Source of the DNA: Enterobacter phage vB_ExiM_F4M1E
Sequence record: OL744216.1
DNA length: 64,000 bases
Direction: 5' to 3' (one strand)
How positions within the stretch are numbered: position 1 is the first letter of the stretch; each line of letters opens with the position of its first letter. Below are positions 7,069 through 63,270 of the stretch, one piece after another. Under the pieces are notes generated by a model, which worked only from the letters and a program-made list of their open reading frames with translations, was not told where the DNA came from and made no database searches. The position numbers were made by a program, and so were the translations under genes.

Positions 7069-10000
7069 ATGGCACAATATGAAGATAAGGTCGTAGAAGT
7101 TCTGGTGACTCTCCCAGAGCCGTCTGCGAGCACCTCTGGTGGTTCTGGTGCGCCGTTCACGGGCATCGAGACCCAAGACACTGTATCCACCACACTGATT
7201 GGTGACGGTACTCAATCCTCTCCTCTGCAAGCAAACATCAATATCTCCCGCCGCACTGGTAACCGCCTGCAAGTGGTTAGCTCCTCCAGCGAGCAGGGTC
7301 TGTATGTTGCTGGCTCTGACACCAAGGTGTCTGCGAAAGATGGCAACACCGTAACTTACATCTCCGCACAAGAAGCAGCTAACGCTGGCAACCCGGCGCT
7401 GGAAGGTGTATACTCCGATCCGGTAAACGTGTCAACCACATCACCGAAGAAGACTCTGGAAATCAAAGCCGATCCGACAGGTAAAGCCAAGACCCAGATC
7501 GACGTGATCGTTGACCCGGCAGCGCAGAACGCTTTGGTTGCTGGCTCTGCTGGCCTGAGCGTACCTGTTTCTGCCGCACAGGACAACACACTGGAAATTC
7601 GCCAGGGTGCTCTGTACGTTCGTCCTCAAGAGACCAAAATCTCTCAGGACCCGAACAACAAAATCGAAGTCAAGTCTGACGGTATCTATGTTGAAACCGT
7701 GAAGGGTGACAAGGGTGATACCGGAGCCACAGGCCCGGCTGGCCCGCAGGGTCCGGAAGGCCCAGAAGGTCCTCAAGGCCCAGAAGGTCCTCAAGGTCCG
7801 CAGGGTGAAAAGGGCGATAAGGGTGACACCGGGGCAACTGGTGCAACAGGCCCGGCGGGTGCTACAGGTGCTCGTGGTCCAGAAGGTCCTAAAGGCCCAG
7901 CAGGGATCGGTATCAACGTTATCGATCAACTGGACGACGTTTCTCAGCTTCCGGCTGTTGCAGAGATGGAACTGGGGGACACCTACGTTATCGGTCAGAA
8001 CTTCTGGACTGTTGTGAATGAATCCAACGTCAAGCAGTGGAAAGACATCGGTAACTTTGCAGGCCCAGAAGGTCTGTCTGCCTATGAAGTTGCAGAGGCC
8101 GCAGGTTTCGTCGGCACTGTTGACGACTGGCTAGCATCCCTGAAAGGGGCTGATGGTATCGGTCTGCAAATCCTGGGGGCATTCAGCGATCCTTCTTTCC
8201 TTCCTATGGAGGGTAACAACCCGGGTGACTGCTACATCATCAACGACCTGATGTACGTATGGACAGGTGAAGAAGATAAGTGGCAGACTGTCGGTCAGAT
8301 CGGTCCAGAAGGTAAATCTGCGTATCAGGTATGGCTGGCTAACGGTCACACCGGGTCTCAGGTTGACTTCCTGAACTCTCTGATCGGTCCTCAAGGTCCA
8401 AAAGGGGACAAGGGTGACAAAGGCGACCCTGGCGTAGACGGTAAAAACGCAAACGCCATCAATATCCTCGGTAAGGTTGCTGACGAAGCAAGCCTGCCAG
8501 CGGGTGCTGATGCAGGTGACGCATACCTCGTAGGGACGAACGTATTCGTTTCTGATGGTGCAGGCAACTGGGAAAACCTGGGTTCCTTCCAAGGTCCTAA
8601 AGGTGATACAGGGGCAACTGGTGCCACCGGGCCGCAGGGCGAGAAAGGTGACCAGGGTGATGTCGGTAAAGACAACTACGCACTGGCAGTCGAAAATGGC
8701 TTCCAAGGTTCCCTGTCTGAATACCTCGCATCCTTGAAAGGCGAGAAGGGTGATGTAGGCCCAGCGGGTCCTCGTGGTAACCCGGGTGCAACTGGTCCTC
8801 AAGGTCCTGTCGGTGAAGGTCTGACCATCCTTGGCACGAAAGCCAACGAAGGCGAACTACCTTCTGATCCAACTGTCGGTGATGCTTGGCTGATCGGTGA
8901 CGACCTGTACGTGTACAACGGAACTGCTTGGCAGAACGTTGGCCCTGTTCGAGGTCCGAAGGGTGAAACCGGGGCTACAGGCCCGGCTGGAGAGAAAGGC
9001 GACAAAGGCGACACTGGCGCTGAAGGCCCTGCTGGTCCACAAGGCCCTAAAGGTGACCAAGGTGACGTAGGTCCTAAAGGGACTGGCCTGAACCCTAAAG
9101 GTACTGTTCCTACCGAAGCAGATCTCCCAACAGAAGATAACGCCAATGGCGACTTCTGGACCACTGTTGATACAGGTGAAGGTTTTGCCTGGGACGGTCT
9201 ACAGTGGGTCAACACCGGGATGGCCCGTGGTAACACCGGACCTCAAGGTGAAAAAGGGGACAAAGGTGACAAGGGTGACCAAGGCGATAAGGGCGACAAC
9301 GGCGCGGGTCTGACCCCTAAAGCGTCTGTGGCTAACGAAGCTGCTCTGCCTACCACTGGAAACACCGTGGGTGACTTCCGTGTTGCTGAAGACACTGGCA
9401 TCGGATACTCTTGGGACGGCAGCGCTTGGATCAATATGGGCACCACTCGTGGTCCTAAAGGTGATCAGGGTGATGTTGGCCCGCAGGGTCCTAAAGGTGA
9501 TACTGGTGACGCAGGTCCTCAGGGCGAAACTGGCCCGGCAGGCCCAGACGGTCCAGAGGGTCCTCAAGGTCCTGTCGGGCCTCAAGGCGATATCGGTCCG
9601 CAAGGTCCTCAAGGTCCGCAGGGTGACATCGGGCCTGGTGTTGAGATCATGGGTAAACTCAACAGCACTTCAGAACTGCCTGCAACCGGGGAACTGGGTC
9701 AGGGATACCTGATCGACGGTGACTTCTGGGGATGGACTGGTTCTGCCTACGAGAACTTGGGTCGTATCCAAGGTCCGGTTGGGCCTGTAGGTCCAACTGG
9801 TGACCAAGGCCCTCAAGGTCCGCAGGGCGTTAAGGGTGACAAGGGTGACCAAGGTTCCTTGTGGATCGTGTTTGACCGTGACCCAGGTACAGCCGATGGT
9901 CGTGTTGGTGACTACTTCCTGAACTCCTCAACGTTGCAGTTCTTCCGTAAGACGAACGCAACCACTTGGGCACCGATGGGTTACATGGGCGGCGGTAACG

Positions 10001-10422
10001 TCTATGACTCTCCGAAAGACGGTAAGCAGTATGCCCGTATCGACGGAGATTGGACCCCGGTAGAGGTTCTGGAAGCCCCAGAAGACTCCGGCTACTACGT
10101 CCGTGTGAACGGGGCATGGCAGAAGTTGGATCGTTACGATCTGCGTGTGATGTCTGCAACTGGCGCACTGGATGCCTCTGTATCCAACGTCTTTACGGTT
10201 GACGGAACAACGTCCAAAGCAATCACCATCTCCAACCTGCCAGCAGGTCGTGCGATGACGGTGGTTGTTAAGTTCCTCGGTAAAGGTGGATCCATGACCT
10301 GGCCTAGCCCGATGGCGTGGTCTAACGGCACCCAACCAGCGCTTGGTACTACCCGTACCATCCTGACGTTCTTCTGGGACGGAACGGACCTGACTGGTGT
10401 TCAGGCGATGACTGTAGACTAA
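7069..10422 (+). CDS. collagen-like side tail fibre protein (Stf-like, Phage_fiber_2-type repeats)
   Basis: 1117 aa. At least 7 blocks of Gly-X-Y collagen triplets ([24 protein letters not shown]...) alternate with ~40-aa repeats of the form LPxxxxxGDxYxxxxxxxxWxxxGxxW typical of lambda Stf-type fibres; non-collagen C-terminal domain. Confidence 0.8.
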
Positions 10423-13820: not shown

Positions 13821-15242
13821 ATGGCTGAATATCAAGACAAGGTTGTTGACGTTGAGGTTAGCCTTGGCACTCAACCAATCGACACCGTTGGCTTTGAAAC
13901 CCCGATGTTCCTGGCAATCCACAACAACTTCCCAGAGCGTGTCCGTTTCTACGTGTCCACTGCTGGGATGATTGCTGATGGTTTTGCAGTAGGTTCCCCG
14001 GCTTACCAGTTCGCCACTAACGCCTTCGCAGGGAACTTCGCCCCGCAGCGTGTTGGTATCGGACGTATGGCAATGGGATCTACCAAGGTGGACTTCACCG
14101 GGACCTCAAACACCGAACAGGTTGTCGTTAATATCACCTTGAATAAGATCGTCAAGGCTGTTAAAATTAACGTACTGCCTGGCAACACCCCGGCACAGAT
14201 TGCTACGGCACTGGCTGATGCGGTTACCGCAGATGCAGATCTGACTGGAAAAGTCACCGCAACCGCTACCGGAACTTATGTGACCTTCACAGCGGTATCT
14301 CCGAACGTTGTGAGTGTAGGAAAAGGCGCAGGCAACTACAAGATCGTTAACGAGTCTACAGAGACTGTTGCAACTGCACTGCCTTTCGTTATCGCAGAGA
14401 ACCACAACTGGTACTTCCTGTCCACCGAAGCCCGTGCAGATGCGGACATCGTAGCGGCGGCTGAGTTCTCCAAGGCGAACTATAAGCTGCACGTTTATAA
14501 CTCCACCGATGTGGACGCTTACGCCCCTGAGAACTCTGCGGCTTCTGTGTTTGACACGCTGAAGTCTCTGAGCTACGACTCTCTGGGAACCTCCGACGCT
14601 GGCGCTGACGTTGACTTCACTGAAGGCTCCGTTATCGGTGCGATGGCTGCGAACGATCCTTCCTACGGTGACTCCCTGCACCTGAAAACGATGCCGGGTA
14701 TGGTTCCGTTTGTTGGCTCTGACACTCAGCGTTCAAACGCTTGGTCTCGTAACGCAAACATCTACCGTAGCCTGTACGGCGGTGGTAGCTACATCGAAGG
14801 TAAAACTTCTTCCGGTCAGTACGTTGACGTGATTCGCTTCTCCCACTGGGTGAAATTCCGTATGGAAGAATCCGTGTTCGCGTACATGAAGCGCCGTTCT
14901 GACATGGGTCTGTCCATGAAGATGAGCGACGAAGACCTTCCTGTTCTGAAGTCTGTACTGATGAACAACCCGATCAACATCGGTATTCGTAATGGTGCAA
15001 TCCTGACTGGTTACGACACTGAAAACAAAGTGTCCTACGACCCGACGATCACTATTCCGAAACGTGCCGAGATCCCGACGAATGACCTTGCTGCACGTAT
15101 CCTGCGTGATGTGAAGGTAGAGCTTGTGTACAACAACTCTCTGCACTACGTCAAGATCCGCGCCGCCGTTGTTCTGGATCGTCCGGCGGGCCAGAGCACT
15201 AACGCTCAGACCCCGATGTCTTCCTCTGCTGTAGGAGTGTAA
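13821..15242 (+). CDS. tail sheath protein
   Basis: 473 aa followed by a tube-sized gene, a frameshifted chaperone and the tape measure, which is the canonical contractile-tail order. N-terminus MAEYQDKVVDVEVSL resembles the N-terminus of the collagen fibre protein. Confidence 0.6.
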   Translation: MAEYQDKVVDVEVSLGTQPIDTVGFETPMFLAIHNNFPERVRFYVSTAGMIADGFAVGSPAYQFATNAFAGNFAPQRVGIGRMAMGSTKVDFTGTSNTEQVVVNITLNKIVKAVKINVLPGNTPAQIATALADAVTADADLTGKVTATATGTYVTFTAVSPNVVSVGKGAGNYKIVNESTETVATALPFVIAENHNWYFLSTEARADADIVAAAEFSKANYKLHVYNSTDVDAYAPENSAASVFDTLKSLSYDSLGTSDAGADVDFTEGSVIGAMAANDPSYGDSLHLKTMPGMVPFVGSDTQRSNAWSRNANIYRSLYGGGSYIEGKTSSGQYVDVIRFSHWVKFRMEESVFAYMKRRSDMGLSMKMSDEDLPVLKSVLMNNPINIGIRNGAILTGYDTENKVSYDPTITIPKRAEIPTNDLAARILRDVKVELVYNNSLHYVKIRAAVVLDRPAGQSTNAQTPMSSSAVGV

Positions 15243-15245
15243 TAG

Positions 15246-15728
15246 ATGCTGAACCAATCCAAAATCCTGACGCTTCAGGCGTATGACCCGGCGAAAGTCT
15301 TGGTCTTTATTGGTGGACAGCGTGTCTCTGGATTTGCAGCGGATACGAAGATCGTTATTACTCGTAACAACGACAACATCTCCGTTCATGCGGGTGTTGA
15401 CGGCGAGATCAGTAACGCACTGTCCCGTGACAACACCGGGGTTATGACCCTCTCTCTCCAGAACACCGCCAAATGGAACGGCTATCTGGCTCAGTGGCAG
15501 CGTCAGGCTAACGTAACTGGCCTGATTTACCTGCCAGTCCAAGTCGAAGGTTCTCAGGGTCTGTCTCTGAACACTATCGGTTGGATTCAGAAACAGCCTG
15601 ACCTGAGCTACGGCTCCGAAGTCGGTCAGATGGACTGGGAGATTGGTGTACTGGACGCATGGCTGTCTCCGGACCAGATCCAAGGCGTCGCCGCTGGCCT
15701 GACCGGGCTGGTTGGTCTGGACCAATAA
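15246..15728 (+). CDS. tail tube protein (putative)
   Basis: 160 aa directly after the sheath (the 4-nt gap suggests coupling). Confidence 0.55.
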   Translation: MLNQSKILTLQAYDPAKVLVFIGGQRVSGFAADTKIVITRNNDNISVHAGVDGEISNALSRDNTGVMTLSLQNTAKWNGYLAQWQRQANVTGLIYLPVQVEGSQGLSLNTIGWIQKQPDLSYGSEVGQMDWEIGVLDAWLSPDQIQGVAAGLTGLVGLDQ

Positions 15729-15799
15729 CAACGTGAGCCACATGGATGTGGCCTTTTCTCACGGTATGGACTTTTCAACAGAAGACACAGGAGTGTATC

Positions 15800-16267
15800 A
15801 TGTTTAAGGTTAAGAAGTCAACAGACATTGTTCTGTGTGGCGGAAAGCGCTTTACTGTATATCACTGGTCACCGAGCCAAGTGATTCGAAACATGCCTAA
15901 AATTGGTCGTCTTGTGGCGGTTCCGATGGGCACAGTTGCCGGGTCTGCCCTGGCAAAAGGGGAAGGCTTCCACGATGCTCTCCCAACAGCGATCCTGTAC
16001 ATCCTTGACCAGATCGAGGACGGAGGTGAAGAGATCATCAACATGTTGCTCGAAGGTGTAGAAGTAGACAGCATGGGTGGTCCAATCGACATTGATGAAG
16101 TGTTTGATGGACACGTCGAAGACCTGATTACATTGCTCGGAAAGGTAGTTGAAATCAACTATGGCTGTTTTTTCAGCAAGAGCGGTTTCGGGACCATCGA
16201 CAGCTTCCTCAAGAGCCTGGGGCTGGCACGAGCGGTGGACAACCTGGACAACCAGACGGAAACCTGA
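15800..16267 (+). CDS. tail assembly chaperone (G-like, 0-frame product)
   Basis: Start chosen at MFKVKK after ACAGGAG (the track ORF begins at 15746). Lies immediately upstream of the tape measure and contains the slippery heptamer near its 3' end. Confidence 0.6.
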   Translation: MFKVKKSTDIVLCGGKRFTVYHWSPSQVIRNMPKIGRLVAVPMGTVAGSALAKGEGFHDALPTAILYILDQIEDGGEEIINMLLEGVEVDSMGGPIDIDEVFDGHVEDLITLLGKVVEINYGCFFSKSGFGTIDSFLKSLGLARAVDNLDNQTET

Positions 16268-16539
16268 TCCCGCTGACCACCGTAGAGAAAGCAATTGAGT
16301 ATACACGGAAGAACTCTTCTCTAAAATGGTACGACTACCTCTACTTCAGGGTAATGGAGCGGTTCAAGGGTGTCAACGAGATTTCGATCGAATCTGGTGA
16401 TATGGATGACCTTCTGAAGAAAAACGAGTATCTGGACATTCAGGACTTCGTTCAGGAGGCCAAGCAAAAGGATATCGATCAGGCTCGGAAGAATGCTGAA
16501 CAAGCGGCCCGCACAAACAAGAAGTTCAGGGGTGGATAA
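16153..16539 (+). CDS. -1 frame extension of tail assembly chaperone (GT-like fusion ORF)
   Basis: The -1 frame is open from 16153 (just after a TGA at 16150) to TAA at 16537, overlapping the last 115 nt of the chaperone ORF; T_TTT_TTC lies in the overlap. Confidence 0.55.
   Translation, partial: NQLWLFFQQERFRDHRQLPQEPGAGTSGGQPGQPDGNLIPLTTVEKAIEYTRKNSSLKWYDYLYFRVMERFKGVNEISIESGDMDDLLKKNEYLDIQDFVQEAKQKDIDQARKNAEQAARTNKKFRGG
16168..16174 (+). other. programmed -1 ribosomal frameshift slippery heptamer T_TTT_TTC
   Basis: X_XXY_YYZ motif in the 0-frame (tgt ttt ttc); after slippage reading continues cag caa gag... into the 16153-16539 ORF. Confidence 0.55.
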
Positions 16540-16576
16540 GGGCTGGAGTCGAAAGACTCTGGCCTTTTCTTTTTTC
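16540..16576 (+). terminator. hairpin + U-tract (partial terminator) before tape measure gene
   Basis: GGCTGGAGTC-gaaa-GACTCTGGCC followed by ttttcttttttc. Confidence 0.45.
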
Positions 16577-16606
16577 AGGCGATAGAATACTGCCGGAGGA
16601 GAAGCA

Positions 16607-19039
16607 ATGGCAAGTGGTAACGTAATTGTCACCAAAACAGTCAACCGTACTACGTTTGAGGTAGACAAATCATCTTATGCCAAGGCGGTCAAACAGATCC
16701 GCCAGGTGGGCAAAGAATGGGAGAAGGCATCTGATGCAGTCTCCAAACCAAAGAAGGACCCGGCTAAAGCCTACGATAAGTCGGCTCAACGTATGCGTTT
16801 GGTGAACAAGCGCCTGGCAGAAACCCGTGCCCGGGAGGAGAAACGAGCCTCTGACATCAGTATCGCAAATGCCAAGCGTGAAGCGAGAGCCAAAGAGGCC
16901 ATTGCCAAAGTCTCCGCTGCCCGTATCAAGCAACAGGTCAAGCAGATGACTGCTCCTCGCGCCGGGATGAGCGAGATGAAGAAATTCTACCAGCAGCAGG
17001 AACGTGAGGCTAAAAAGGCCAACCGCAAGGCCACCACTGGCATGAACGCTGCATCTCGTCCAATGAACGTCACCCGGATCAACTCTGTTCAGCTTCCTCC
17101 TCGTGGTGGTACTGGCACAGGAATGGTAGGTGATCCGAACAAAATTTACAACCCTGAATTGATTGCTGCCCAAAACCGTGCGATGGCAGGCCGTATCCGT
17201 AGTCAGTCTCAGGCCCAAGATCGTAAGACAAAAGCGGAGACTCGTCAACGAGCAGCCGCCGCAGCACGTGCTGCCCGCATTGATGATGTGATGGCCCAGC
17301 AACGTATCCGCCTGTCTTCCAAATATGGTCGCAGCTATGAGGGCCGTCTTGGTAGAGATAGTGCAGGTCAGGGCATTCAGGACTTGAACCGCCAGTTCCG
17401 TGCTGGTACACTGTCAGCAGGTCAGTATCGCCAGAGTATTCAAGCTCTGGAACGCCAGTTCCGTTCCGCACAGGCAAGTGCAGGCGGGTTTGGGGCGGTC
17501 CTCGGAGATATTCGGTCCCAGTTGTTGGGTGCCGGGGCAGCATACGGTGTATTTGCCGCAGGCGCAAGTGTTCTTCAACAGGGTCAGTTCTTCCAGGGTA
17601 TGGATGCAACAATGACAATGGTTTCTGATTCATCAGAAGAAGCTGCAAAACGAATCCAGTTCTTGAAGGATCAGGCTTACCGTCTCGGCCTGGACCTGAA
17701 AATCGCCTCTCAGGGCTACGTGCAGATGTCCGTCAACTCCGACGGAATCCTGAACAAGGCTCAGAACGATGAACTGTTCAAAGGTTTCTCTGAGTACGCA
17801 ACGGCCCTTCAGGTTGACCCGGTTAAGTTCCAGCGTGGTATCACCGCGATCGGGCAGATGATGGGTAAAGGCCAGATCATGGCTGAAGAATTGAAAGGTC
17901 AGTTGGCTGAAGGTATTCCCGGCTCCCTGCAAGTGTTCGTGAAGGCATCTCAGGAAGCGTTCAACGACACCACCATTGACGTTGAAAAACTGATGGACAT
18001 GATGCAGAAGGGTGAACTGAAAGCTGCCAAGGTTCTGCCATTCGTAGCCAAATACTTCGCTGAAGCAGCCCGTAACGGCGGCGCGTTGGACAAGGCGTTG
18101 CACAGTAACCGTGTTGCTATGCAGCAGATGCAGCAGACTTGGGTTAACTTCCAGAATGCCATCTTTGAAGGTGGGTTCGGTGAGCAAATGACTCGTGTGT
18201 TCCGCGACTTGGCAACCATCCTCGACAGTAACGGCGAACTGGCAACCAATCTTGGTAAGTTCTTCGGATCTGTGATCGAAGGATTCTGGGACATGGTGAC
18301 AGAGATCCACGATGACTTCGTTCTCTTGGACCGTATCGTCAGCTACTACGCTGAGAAGCTCGGCTACCAAGGCGACGTGTTGAAAGACGTGTTCAACTGG
18401 GCGGGTTATGCAATCGGCATGGCAGTGTTTGTCGGTGGTCTGTACAAGATCTTCGGTATTCTGTCAAAGATTGCCGGACTCCGTGGCGCTCTGAAGGACA
18501 TCCGTGGCACAATGGGTGGAGACCTCGGAGGCGGCGGTCGTGGAGGTCGTGCTGGCCCGAACAGTGGCCCTCAACGTGGTCCTTGGGGCGGTGGCCCACG
18601 AGGATTTAAGCTCCCGGTAATGCCTGGCCCTTGGCCTATGATTGCAGGGATTATGGGGTGGAACTACCTCAATGATGAGGAAAGAAACGCATCTGCGGAG
18701 GCCCGTAACCAAGCACTGGCCCCTGCTCGTGCAACTCAGGACACCATCCAGCAAGCTGTGGCTGGAGACATGGGTCTGATGTTGAAGACGGCATTCTTCT
18801 CCTTGTTCGGTTCCAAAGCTGAAGCTCCGAGCACAACCATTGACCCTGAACGTTTGGTTACCGCAGGCATGAGTGGCCCTTACCCTGGTCCATTCCCTCT
18901 GAACCAACCTCCTCAGAAGGTCGAGGGTAACGTGACTATCGAGATCAAGGCTGGCGAATTGAAGAACATGATTCGTGCCGTTGTTGACGAGAACAACCAG
19001 TTCAACTTCAACATGCTCATCCAAGGTGGGCCTAACTAA
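16607..19039 (+). CDS. tail tape measure protein
   Basis: 810 aa; Ala/Gln/Arg/Lys-rich coiled-coil N-terminal half, hydrophobic segment, and a Gly-rich C-terminus (GGDLGGGGRGGRAGPNSGPQRGPWGGGPRG); follows the chaperone frameshift pair. Confidence 0.8.
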   Translation: MASGNVIVTKTVNRTTFEVDKSSYAKAVKQIRQVGKEWEKASDAVSKPKKDPAKAYDKSAQRMRLVNKRLAETRAREEKRASDISIANAKREARAKEAIAKVSAARIKQQVKQMTAPRAGMSEMKKFYQQQEREAKKANRKATTGMNAASRPMNVTRINSVQLPPRGGTGTGMVGDPNKIYNPELIAAQNRAMAGRIRSQSQAQDRKTKAETRQRAAAAARAARIDDVMAQQRIRLSSKYGRSYEGRLGRDSAGQGIQDLNRQFRAGTLSAGQYRQSIQALERQFRSAQASAGGFGAVLGDIRSQLLGAGAAYGVFAAGASVLQQGQFFQGMDATMTMVSDSSEEAAKRIQFLKDQAYRLGLDLKIASQGYVQMSVNSDGILNKAQNDELFKGFSEYATALQVDPVKFQRGITAIGQMMGKGQIMAEELKGQLAEGIPGSLQVFVKASQEAFNDTTIDVEKLMDMMQKGELKAAKVLPFVAKYFAEAARNGGALDKALHSNRVAMQQMQQTWVNFQNAIFEGGFGEQMTRVFRDLATILDSNGELATNLGKFFGSVIEGFWDMVTEIHDDFVLLDRIVSYYAEKLGYQGDVLKDVFNWAGYAIGMAVFVGGLYKIFGILSKIAGLRGALKDIRGTMGGDLGGGGRGGRAGPNSGPQRGPWGGGPRGFKLPVMPGPWPMIAGIMGWNYLNDEERNASAEARNQALAPARATQDTIQQAVAGDMGLMLKTAFFSLFGSKAEAPSTTIDPERLVTAGMSGPYPGPFPLNQPPQKVEGNVTIEIKAGELKNMIRAVVDENNQFNFNMLIQGGPN

Positions 19040-35401: not shown

Positions 35402-35769
35402 TTTCTCCGAGGTTTTAAAACACCTGATTTTGAAAGAGGAATCTCATCGGCATCTCTGCCTTTCTCTCCATCTTTCCCATCCTTTCCGGCCTTTCCTGGT
35501 TTGCCCTCCGGGCCTGCCGGACCCGCTGGACCTGGCACATAAACATACTGCGGTTCAGTCAACGCTGCAATAAACAGTAGTATTGCCCAAGCAACACCAT
35601 TGACCCACAATGCAGGCCACATCGAAAAGAATACAGACAGGGCCAAGATCAATGTCGCATTGCGATGATCTCTTCGCCGAGCGATCAAGTACGGGGCCAT
35701 CCAGAACAACACGAACAGCCATGCAGAACCTGTGAACAAAGACCACATCAGATCAACAAACTCTGTCAT
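35398..35769 (-). CDS. membrane protein with C-terminal collagen-like (Gly-X-Y) segment
   Basis: 123 aa: three hydrophobic helices followed by PGPAGPAGPEGKPGKAGKDGKDGEKG (9 GXY triplets) and a short basic tail. Confidence 0.6.
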   Translation of the reverse strand: MTEFVDLMWSLFTGSAWLFVLFWMAPYLIARRRDHRNATLILALSVFFSMWPALWVNGVAWAILLFIAALTEPQYVYVPGPAGPAGPEGKPGKAGKDGKDGEKGRDADEIPLSKSGVLKPRRN

Positions 35770-62827: not shown

Positions 62828-63270
62828 TCTTCAGACCCCATCATGTTGAGTTTACGGCCCGCCCGCATCTCTAAAAATGCTTTCAGGTCCCCAAACTTCC
62901 CTGTCGCCACCGCTCCCGCTGGCGCTCGGTTGTAGTCCCAGGCTTCCTTCGCCTCCTCGATATCACCAACACGGGCTTCGATCTGCTTTCTCAGAGAATA
63001 CGCAGAATAGCCAGAACGGATGACTCTGGGCGGAACATAGCGAATAATACCTGCATCAATTGCACGTTGGGACATTGCGACCTTGTTCCTGTGCATCTTG
63101 ATACATTTCACTACGTACTCCTCGAACTCTTTCTTGAACGCCGGATGGATCAGTGCCTCCGGGGCATAGAAATGCACCACACGATATTGACCATCCTCAC
63201 CTTTGAGGTACTGAATCTCTGGACGACCAAATTGCACTGTCACATCAAAATCTTCAATCGTAAATTTCAT
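62824..63270 (-). CDS. hypothetical protein
   Basis: 148 aa. Confidence 0.4.
   Translation of the reverse strand: MKFTIEDFDVTVQFGRPEIQYLKGEDGQYRVVHFYAPEALIHPAFKKEFEEYVVKCIKMHRNKVAMSQRAIDAGIIRYVPPRVIRSGYSAYSLRKQIEARVGDIEEAKEAWDYNRAPAGAVATGKFGDLKAFLEMRAGRKLNMMGSEE

Follow-up and report, generated by a model that had tools for sequence, protein, structure and literature searches.

A probable lambda G/GT-type –1 frameshift in the gene for the tail assembly chaperone of Enterobacter phage vB_ExiM_F4M1E and its relatives

The gene for the tail assembly chaperone of Enterobacter phage vB_ExiM_F4M1E (OL744216.1) contains the slippery heptamer T_TTT_TTC, and an open –1 frame runs from this heptamer beyond the stop codon of the chaperone. 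In the 64,000 nucleotides (nt) of this phage that were analyzed, hereafter the window, with positions counted from its first letter, it is highly probable that a –1 programmed frameshift of the lambda G/GT type at this heptamer yields two products, i.e., the chaperone G and a longer fusion protein, GT. An earlier reading of the same DNA, made without database searches (hereafter the sequence-only reading), had proposed a G/GT arrangement upstream of the tape measure gene, and this arrangement is borne out by the membership of the chaperone in Pfam family PF21822, by the order of the genes, by the conservation of the heptamer and of the –1 open reading frame (ORF), and by selection on the –1 frame. 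Recoding of this kind is well known, from lambda G/GT and from P2 E/E+E′, and the database annotations of this phage group have missed the site. The elements of the chaperone locus are listed here, with lengths in amino acids (aa); KaOmega stands for the closely related Klebsiella phage vB_KaeM_KaOmega (MN013077).

15800–16267, plus strand: G, the tail assembly chaperone, 0 frame, 155 aa (PF21822 Phage_TAC_15, phrog_3840)
16150–16152, plus strand: TGA, the last –1-frame stop before the slip site (frame scan)
16168–16174, plus strand: slippery heptamer T_TTT_TTC in the 0-frame register (sequence, frame scan, relatives)
16174–16539, plus strand: T, the –1-frame extension, 121 aa followed by TAA, giving a predicted fusion GT of 246 aa (translation, PHROG matches)
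16175–16264, plus strand: dual-coding overlap, for the 30-aa C-terminus private to G and the Gly/Pro/Gln-rich linker of GT (variation suppressed)
16354–16356, plus strand: ATG of the separate 61-aa ORF given in the ORF list and in the KaOmega record; not a conserved start (alignment)

The slip site and its conservation

The sequence and a frame scan place TTTTTTC at 16168–16174 over the 0-frame codons TGT TTT TTC, i.e., in the X_XXY_YYZ register as T_TTT_TTC, just as the sequence-only reading had claimed, and no other in-register heptamer of this form is found in G (15800–16267). The 0-frame stop of G is the TGA at 16265–16267, with the heptamer 97 nt ahead of it. The –1 frame is interrupted by six stops in the preceding 150 nt (16006, 16027, 16093, 16096, 16105 and 16150) and is then free of stops from 16153, for 387 nt after 16152, to the TAA at 16537–16539. 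The earlier claim that this frame stays open for 366 nt, past the 0-frame stop at 16265–16267 and up to the TAA at 16537, was confirmed; two of its details needed correction, in that the frame opens 15 nt upstream of the heptamer (at 16153) instead of 16 nt, and the 366 nt hold 121 aa and a stop instead of 122 aa. A simulated tandem –1 slip gave a product of 246 aa with the junction …NYGCFF|QQERFRDHRQLPQEPG…, reproducing the junction peptide ...NYGCFF|QQERFRDHRQLPQEPG that had been put forward. The tryptic peptide spanning the junction of GT is predicted to be VVEINYGCFFQQER, and its 0-frame counterpart in G is VVEINYGCFFSK. The label ‘textbook’ that had been given to this –1 frameshift is a fair one.

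G matches PF21822 at 72.7 bits (E=5e-20), with residues 14–131 aligned to positions 1–127 of the 127 in the profile, passing the gathering threshold of 22 bits, and it matches phrog_3840 at 7e-64. The extension matches phrog_8811 over its residues 61–121 and phrog_10409 over its residues 39–117. Pfam and NCBIfam returned no match for the T extension, and NCBIfam none for G.

The codon TTT is the minor Phe codon in the structural module of the phage (40 TTT vs 152 TTC), and a –1 frame would stay open over this length by chance with a probability of (61/64)^122, i.e., about 0.003. In the window as a whole, 8 of the 96 in-register heptamers have a –1 frame reaching 150 nt or more beyond the 0-frame stop, in most cases caused by an adjacent gene that happens to occupy the –1 frame. 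The pattern of a heptamer with a long –1 frame is therefore not decisive by itself, and as it is not rare in the window we dropped the argument from improbability and relied on comparative evidence. Further in-register heptamers with –1 frames open for 101–221 codons lie at 35419 and 5275 on the minus strand and at 62890 and 1177 on the plus strand; these are most likely just cases of adjacent genes in the –1 frame. The sole other TTTTTTC on the plus strand, at 16570, is part of the T-tail of a hairpin at 16538–16567.

The region shares 99.5% identity with KaOmega (Certrevirus, Vequintavirinae) and 99.8% with Enterobacter phage ENT3. When the simulated fusion served as a tblastn query, 358 of 496 phage records proved to contain the two frame pieces next to each other, and in representatives of each clade we located the chaperone ORF, all in-register heptamers and the neighboring frames. 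T_TTT_TTC stands at the homologous position in Certrevirus, Vequintavirus (the rV5 group), Seunavirus, Mydovirus, Henunavirus and Avunavirus, and likewise in Aeromonas phage 2L372X, Pseudomonas phage PsgM04F and Klebsiella phage 05F01; in the phi92 and nieznany clade it is lengthened to C_CCT_TTT_TTC. In the representatives with T_TTT_TTC, whose protein identity to the proteins of the window falls as low as 26%, a –1 ORF of 117–141 codons follows. A scan of IMG/VR added T_TTT_TTC with a –1 ORF of 108–141 codons in 35 of 35 loci; these loci were found via the peptide NYGCFF and Phe-Phe was thereby pre-selected, with the choice of codons left free. Altogether, about 55 loci provide 28 distinct sequence contexts, and each of these has T_TTT_TTC in register, followed by a –1 ORF of 108–141 codons. 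Synonymous sites beside it vary (TAC/TAT; GGC/GGT/GGA) and TTT TTC is invariant across the loci; the residue before Phe-Phe is Cys, Pro or Ser, and its codon always ends in T. A –1-frame stop lies 2–92 nt upstream of the heptamer in the relatives, and at most 35 nt upstream in all except Rheinheimera phage Barba19A.

In two distant lineages another canonical heptamer takes the place of T_TTT_TTC at a nearly homologous position: it is G_GGA_AAG in Barba19A and A_AAT_TTT in Vibrio phage 249E41-1, each in register, 61–91 nt ahead of the stop of G and followed by –1 ORFs of 122–126 codons. Such an exchange of one canonical heptamer for another is the outcome expected of selection for the shift itself. 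The comparison with homologous phages that the sequence-only reading had suggested thus found a heptamer and a –1 ORF kept in every relative examined.

The same comparison bears on the view that the heptamer is a homopolymer error of sequencing or assembly, with T7 in the actual gene and one uninterrupted frame for a protein of 246 aa. Homopolymer runs are error-prone on some sequencing platforms; however, exactly T6 followed by C is found in all of the approximately 55 independent loci. Past the heptamer, conservation extends to the 0-frame tail of G (GFG…L…G…V…D) and to the stop that closes it, and the 48 homologues of G retrieved from a set of 5.8 billion proteins are 152–162 aa each, all with PF21822 and all of G length, with no natural in-frame fusion among them. 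We regard such an error as almost certainly not the explanation.

Coding selection on the –1 frame

Variable sites were counted in a locus alignment of seven Certrevirus genomes, the window included. In the part of the locus that encodes only G, they fall on codon positions 1/2/3 of the 0 frame as 27/11/77 (p=6e-20). After the ATG at 16354, the counts in the –1 frame are 8/6/44 (p=1e-16), and over the 86 nt between the stop of G and this ATG they are 7/3/14, again in the –1 frame (p=0.005). Protein-coding selection acts on the –1 frame, including upstream of its only ATG. Within the overlap at 16175–16264 only 16 of 90 sites vary, compared to 115 of 368 in the G-only part (p=0.013), and suppressed variation of this sort is expected for dual coding. 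Within the overlap, the 25 nt at 16176–16200 are identical in the seven Certrevirus sequences, and a single base differs in the far more divergent LTH01. The GGTTTCG within this block is kept in nearly all clades and is read as GFG in the 0 frame and as RFR in the –1 frame; the conservation of 16176–16200 may reflect dual coding or an RNA element.

These counts can be set against a reading as two separate genes, in which the 61-aa ORF at 16354–16539 would be translated from its own ATG, with the heptamer and the open frame incidental. Its ATG is present in the window and in its Certrevirus and LTH01 relatives, heptamers with long –1 frames arise by chance elsewhere in the window, and 23 of the 23 relatives’ records inspected (Vequintavirinae, Stephanstirmvirinae, Barbavirus, Plateaulakevirus, Pakpunavirus and unclassified relatives) show either a separate small ORF or an empty region at this place. 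Beyond those close relatives, however, the ATG is not conserved, most other genera having Leu, Val or Ala at the position of this Met, and the annotated ‘starts’ of the downstream piece are inconsistent between records, giving ORFs of 43–82 aa. An alignment of the fusion proteins shows about 25 conserved residues (EKAIEYxRKNSSLKWYDYL) upstream of the Met at 16354, i.e., over the 86 nt in which the –1 frame is already under selection, and the phrog_10409 alignment, which covers residues 39–117 of the extension, thus also begins upstream of this ATG. From 16153 to 16353 the –1 frame contains neither ATG nor GTG nor TTG, and only a weak AGGG precedes the ATG at 16354, by 2 nt. Because the frame has no start codon over this stretch, its ATG is not conserved and conserved residues lie upstream of it, the conserved T domain is beyond the reach of ordinary initiation. 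Translation as two separate genes is therefore very improbable in our judgment.

Proposed mechanism, stimulators and alternatives

In the mechanism that we propose, most ribosomes would read 15800–16267 to its end and release the 155-aa G. On a minority, in which the P-site tRNA-Phe is paired with UUU and the A-site tRNA-Phe with UUC, both tRNAs would slip by –1 on U_UUU_UUC and re-pair with UUU, after which decoding would resume at 16174 in the –1 frame and continue to the TAA at 16537. The resulting GT, of 246 aa, would begin with the first 125 residues of G, followed by a Gly/Pro/Gln-rich linker of about 35 aa from the overlap and, at the C-terminus, by a conserved domain of about 85 aa. 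If lambda serves as the model (PMC5009743), the tape measure protein (16607–19039) would be coated by G and by the G portion of GT, the T domain would recruit the tube protein (15246–15728) so that polymerization begins, and both chaperones would then depart and be absent from the virion. That the event is ribosomal rather than transcriptional, how efficient it is, and which partners G and T bind are points that we infer. For the virion of CB7, a close relative within Certrevirus, the accessible part of a mass spectrometry report (PMC7344957) lists CB7_17 (sheath), CB7_18 (tube) and CB7_23 (tape measure), and CB7_19 to CB7_22 do not appear in it; this negative result from a different phage is consistent with chaperones that leave the finished tail.

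The resemblance to lambda G/GT, the mechanism of which is reviewed in PMC5009743, extends to several features. The stretch between the tube gene and the tape measure gene holds two overlapping ORFs, a –1 shift on an in-register X_XXY_YYZ heptamer is predicted to yield a major product that is short and a minor, longer fusion, RNA structure is not needed, and the products are not expected in virions; the distant relative Barba19A uses lambda’s own heptamer, G_GGA_AAG. Unlike lambda, the window has the heptamer T_TTT_TTC and the tail is contractile. The lambda slip site is close to the end of G, whereas here it lies 97 nt before the stop of G, leaving G a private tail of 30 aa and GT a linker of about 35 aa. 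Neither lambda G nor lambda T is detectably similar in sequence, and the Pfam family here is PF21822. The lambda frameshift was reportedly described by Levin et al. in 1993, and the type is said to have been defined by Xu, Hendrix and Duda in 2004, with further work in 2013 and 2014. P2 E/E+E′, in the FETUD operon, is alike in its contractile tail, in the order of sheath, tube, chaperone pair and tape measure, and in a –1 shift on a T-rich heptamer, which in P2 is T_TTT_TTG; it belongs to a different protein family. The P2 frameshift was reportedly described by Christie et al. in 2002.

Several observations weigh against a G/GT frameshift in this phage. The sequence-only reading had suggested a check for a stem-loop or pseudoknot 3′ of the heptamer, and neither a stem-loop nor a conserved structure was found there, pseudoknots not having been searched for explicitly. 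The 126 nt downstream of the heptamer fold no better than shuffled sequences (z=0.19), and over the first 61 nt the folding is worse than in shuffles (z=+2.09); for 12 relatives RNAalifold gave 0 pairs downstream of the heptamer, pseudoknots again not being searched for explicitly, and minimum free energy folds of each relative downstream of the heptamer showed nothing significant or conserved. A marginal hairpin of 4 bp, GGUU…RRCC, is seen repeatedly in Vequintavirinae at 9 nt downstream; we make no claim for it, as its recurrence needs a shift of the alignment between genera and is confounded by dual coding. The second kind of stimulator is likewise missing here. Vequinta-, Seuna-, Avuna- and Henunavirus and the phi92 clade have an element like a Shine-Dalgarno (SD) sequence, GGAGG, GAGG or GGAG, which precedes the heptamer by 13–14 nt, and an SD-like element at this spacing stimulates –1 shifting in dnaX. 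It is absent at 13–14 nt upstream (16144–16167 in the window) in Certrevirus, the window included, which has GTTGAAATC or GTTGAAGTC instead, and it is also absent in Mydovirus and the Aeromonas phage. The upstream element may be a lineage-specific stimulator, confounded by its coding for Leu-Glu-Val. In the window its absence means that the efficiency of the shift may be low.

The missing RNA structure was not counted against the G/GT interpretation, because lambda G/GT needs none. Stimulatory RNA structure appears not to be involved in this phage, unlike the IS3/IS911 and dnaX types of site, there being no stable conserved structure 5–9 nt 3′ of the heptamer (pseudoknots were not explicitly searched for). 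Heptamers of the form H_HH.U_UU.Y are among the most efficient –1 motifs in Escherichia coli, and U_UU.U_UU.C gives more than 0.1% shifting without any stimulator (PMC4066793). The ratio of G to GT in lambda is 30:1, i.e., about 3% shifting, and the P2 frameshift is 2–3 times as efficient as that of lambda (PMC5009743). As lambda works at about 3%, no strong stimulator is needed here.

A further point against the proposed tandem slip comes from a related chaperone. In the part of a December 2025 study (PMC12846349) that was available, a conserved –1 shift at an invariant GTTTTT is proposed for the chaperones of Vandenendeviridae (Pakpunavirus) and Andersonviridae, and that part contains no analysis of this site in Vequintavirinae; the genome announcement of Moogle, a Felix O1-like phage of the Andersonviridae, also mentions a chaperone frameshift (PMC4319497). 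The chaperone of the Pakpunavirus Zigelbrucke, orf063, matches PF21822 at 1.7e-23 and has 31% identity to G of the window (E=5e-9). Its T6 run, at the homologous position and just upstream of the conserved GGTTTCG, precedes a –1 ORF of 116 codons; the Pakpunavirus –1 ORF is routinely annotated as a separate hypothetical gene. The T domains of the window and of Pakpunavirus show no significant pairwise similarity (E=0.14). Although the TGTTTTTTC of the window includes GTTTTT, as in the Pakpunavirus motif, the Zigelbrucke run (locus L058, 4821–4829) is in another register, tcG GTT TTT TCT, i.e., G_GUU_UUU, so that the published GTTTTT site does not conform to the canonical X_XXY_YYZ pattern. Unlike Pakpunavirus, the window has a perfect tandem-slippage heptamer, and so does each of the Vequintavirinae and Stephanstirmvirinae examined. 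The element conserved across families may therefore be the U-run itself and not the heptamer for tandem slippage.

Because the Pakpunavirus run is one register off, the window has no detectable structure or SD-like stimulator, and 16176–16200 is identical among the Certrevirus sequences, we also considered that the signal is the U6 run and that this chaperone family uses a stimulator-independent or otherwise unconventional route, which we think unlikely. The candidates for such a route, to which the same small weight applies, are a slip of a single tRNA on the U-run, low-level slippage by the polymerase, and a stimulator formed by linear mRNA or by the nascent peptide in the GFG/RFR block.

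Slippage at the level of transcription would lead to the same fusion in another way: RNA polymerase would add one U on T6, and standard translation would then give …CFFQQER…. The T6 run that is shared with the Pakpunavirus chaperone in another codon register is what a register-independent mechanism predicts, and no ribosomal stimulator was found. By its title, a paper of Vladimirov et al. from 2022, cited in the Adele paper, proposes a non-frameshifting route for T4-like chaperones. However, T6 is shorter than the homopolymer of about 9 A or T at which documented bacterial transcriptional slippage, as at programmed sites, takes place (PMC5009743). The run is in the exact X_XXY_YYZ register, ending in C, in 28 of 28 contexts, and the G_GGA_AAG of Barba19A and A_AAT_TTT of 249E41-1 are good heptamers for tandem slippage and poor sites for slippage by a polymerase. 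Transcriptional slippage is thus improbable as the source of the fusion, and we favor the –1 frameshift of the lambda G/GT type.

Neighboring genes, annotation and related records

Around the chaperone locus, the genes run in the order sheath, tube, G/T as overlapping ORFs, and tape measure.

13821–15242, plus strand: tail sheath gene (phrog_205 at 2e-110; tail sheath in the CR3 and phiTE RefSeq records)
15246–15728, plus strand: tail tube gene, its product the presumed partner of the T domain (Pfam PF11681 KPP10_Orf10 at 5.6e-07; phrog_280 at 3e-39)
15737–15752, plus strand: terminator-like hairpin with a T-run, GCCACATGGATGTGGC, in the gap between the tube and chaperone genes (consensus scan, sequence)
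15790–15793, plus strand: GGAG, the ribosome-binding site of the chaperone start (sequence; the coding sequences of relatives begin at MFKVKK)
16538–16567, plus strand: terminator-like 13-bp hairpin with a T-run, directly 3′ of the stop of T (scan; a terminator is annotated at the equivalent position in phiTE)
16607–19039, plus strand: tape measure gene, 810 aa, its product the presumed client of G and GT (PF20155 TMP_3 at 2e-16; phrog_5255 at E=0)

Homologues of the gene at 15246–15728 are named tail tube in several relatives’ records. The chaperone very probably starts at the ATG at 15800, judging from the GGAG at 15790–15793 and from the N-terminus MFKVKK, which is common to relatives. The ATG at 15746, with which the ORF quoted in the sequence-only reading begins, lies inside the terminator-like hairpin at 15737–15752, and the start at 15800 is to be favored over it. 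The KaOmega record and the ORF list both use 15746, and the gp17 of KaOmega is 173 aa there; with the real start probably at 15800, this annotated protein would be about 18 aa too long.

The gap between the stop of T and the start of the tape measure gene, 67 nt in the window (16540–16606), is a hot spot of insertion in relatives. Two extra ORFs are found there in phiTE (locus L003, 2392–3492) and DU_PP_I (locus L019, 1221–1477), and in Barba19A an HNH endonuclease is encoded there on the opposite strand (locus L009, 1405–2043). Placed after the chaperone gene and ahead of the tape measure gene, a terminator would reduce transcription of the latter relative to G. Searching the PDB by sequence with the GT fusion gave only chance-level matches to talin (E > 0.3), and a single-sequence AlphaFold2 model of the 246-aa fusion was unusable, with a mean predicted local distance difference test score of 37 and a predicted template modeling score of 0.26. 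Further upstream, at 7069–10422, the window encodes a tail fiber of 1,117 aa with extensive collagen triple-helix repeats (Pfam Collagen at 9.5e-34, in six stretches) and a weak fibritin-C-like end.

The pieces at 15746–16267 and 16354–16539 do stand as separate ORFs in the ORF list, as had been pointed out, and the KaOmega record carries gp17 and gp18 as two hypothetical proteins. The accompanying claim that naive annotation misses the fusion holds widely: not one of the 23 relatives’ GenBank or RefSeq records inspected joins the two pieces. The downstream piece is filed as ‘hypothetical’ ORFs of 43–82 aa, and PHROGs 8811, 10409 and 16039 are of ‘unknown function’. A literature search found no report of a frameshift for rV5, phi92, Certrevirus or Vequintavirinae. 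Both pieces are present in at least 358 phage records, many of which therefore probably lack an essential protein of tail assembly of about 246 aa.

The main value of the finding is the correction of annotation for a large clade of phages, several of which are therapy or biocontrol candidates, directed at Klebsiella, Cronobacter, Pectobacterium and E. coli, for which complete annotation is expected. Its biological value is smaller, in that the G/GT rule is extended to a further large clade of phages with contractile tails. The clade and its relatives also offer a natural series at one homologous site, i.e., T_TTT_TTC, C_CCT_TTT_TTC, G_GGA_AAG, A_AAT_TTT and the off-register G_GUU_UUU, and this series, with or without the upstream SD-like element, could be used to test what determines the ratio of G to GT.

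Some of the records encountered are probably mislabeled or contaminated. PQ520352.1, of 2,019 nt and labeled ‘Enterococcus phage IME_EF3’, is 99.9% identical to the region, and several ‘Campylobacter phage’ records (MG0656xx) are rV5-like or phi92-like coliphage genomes.

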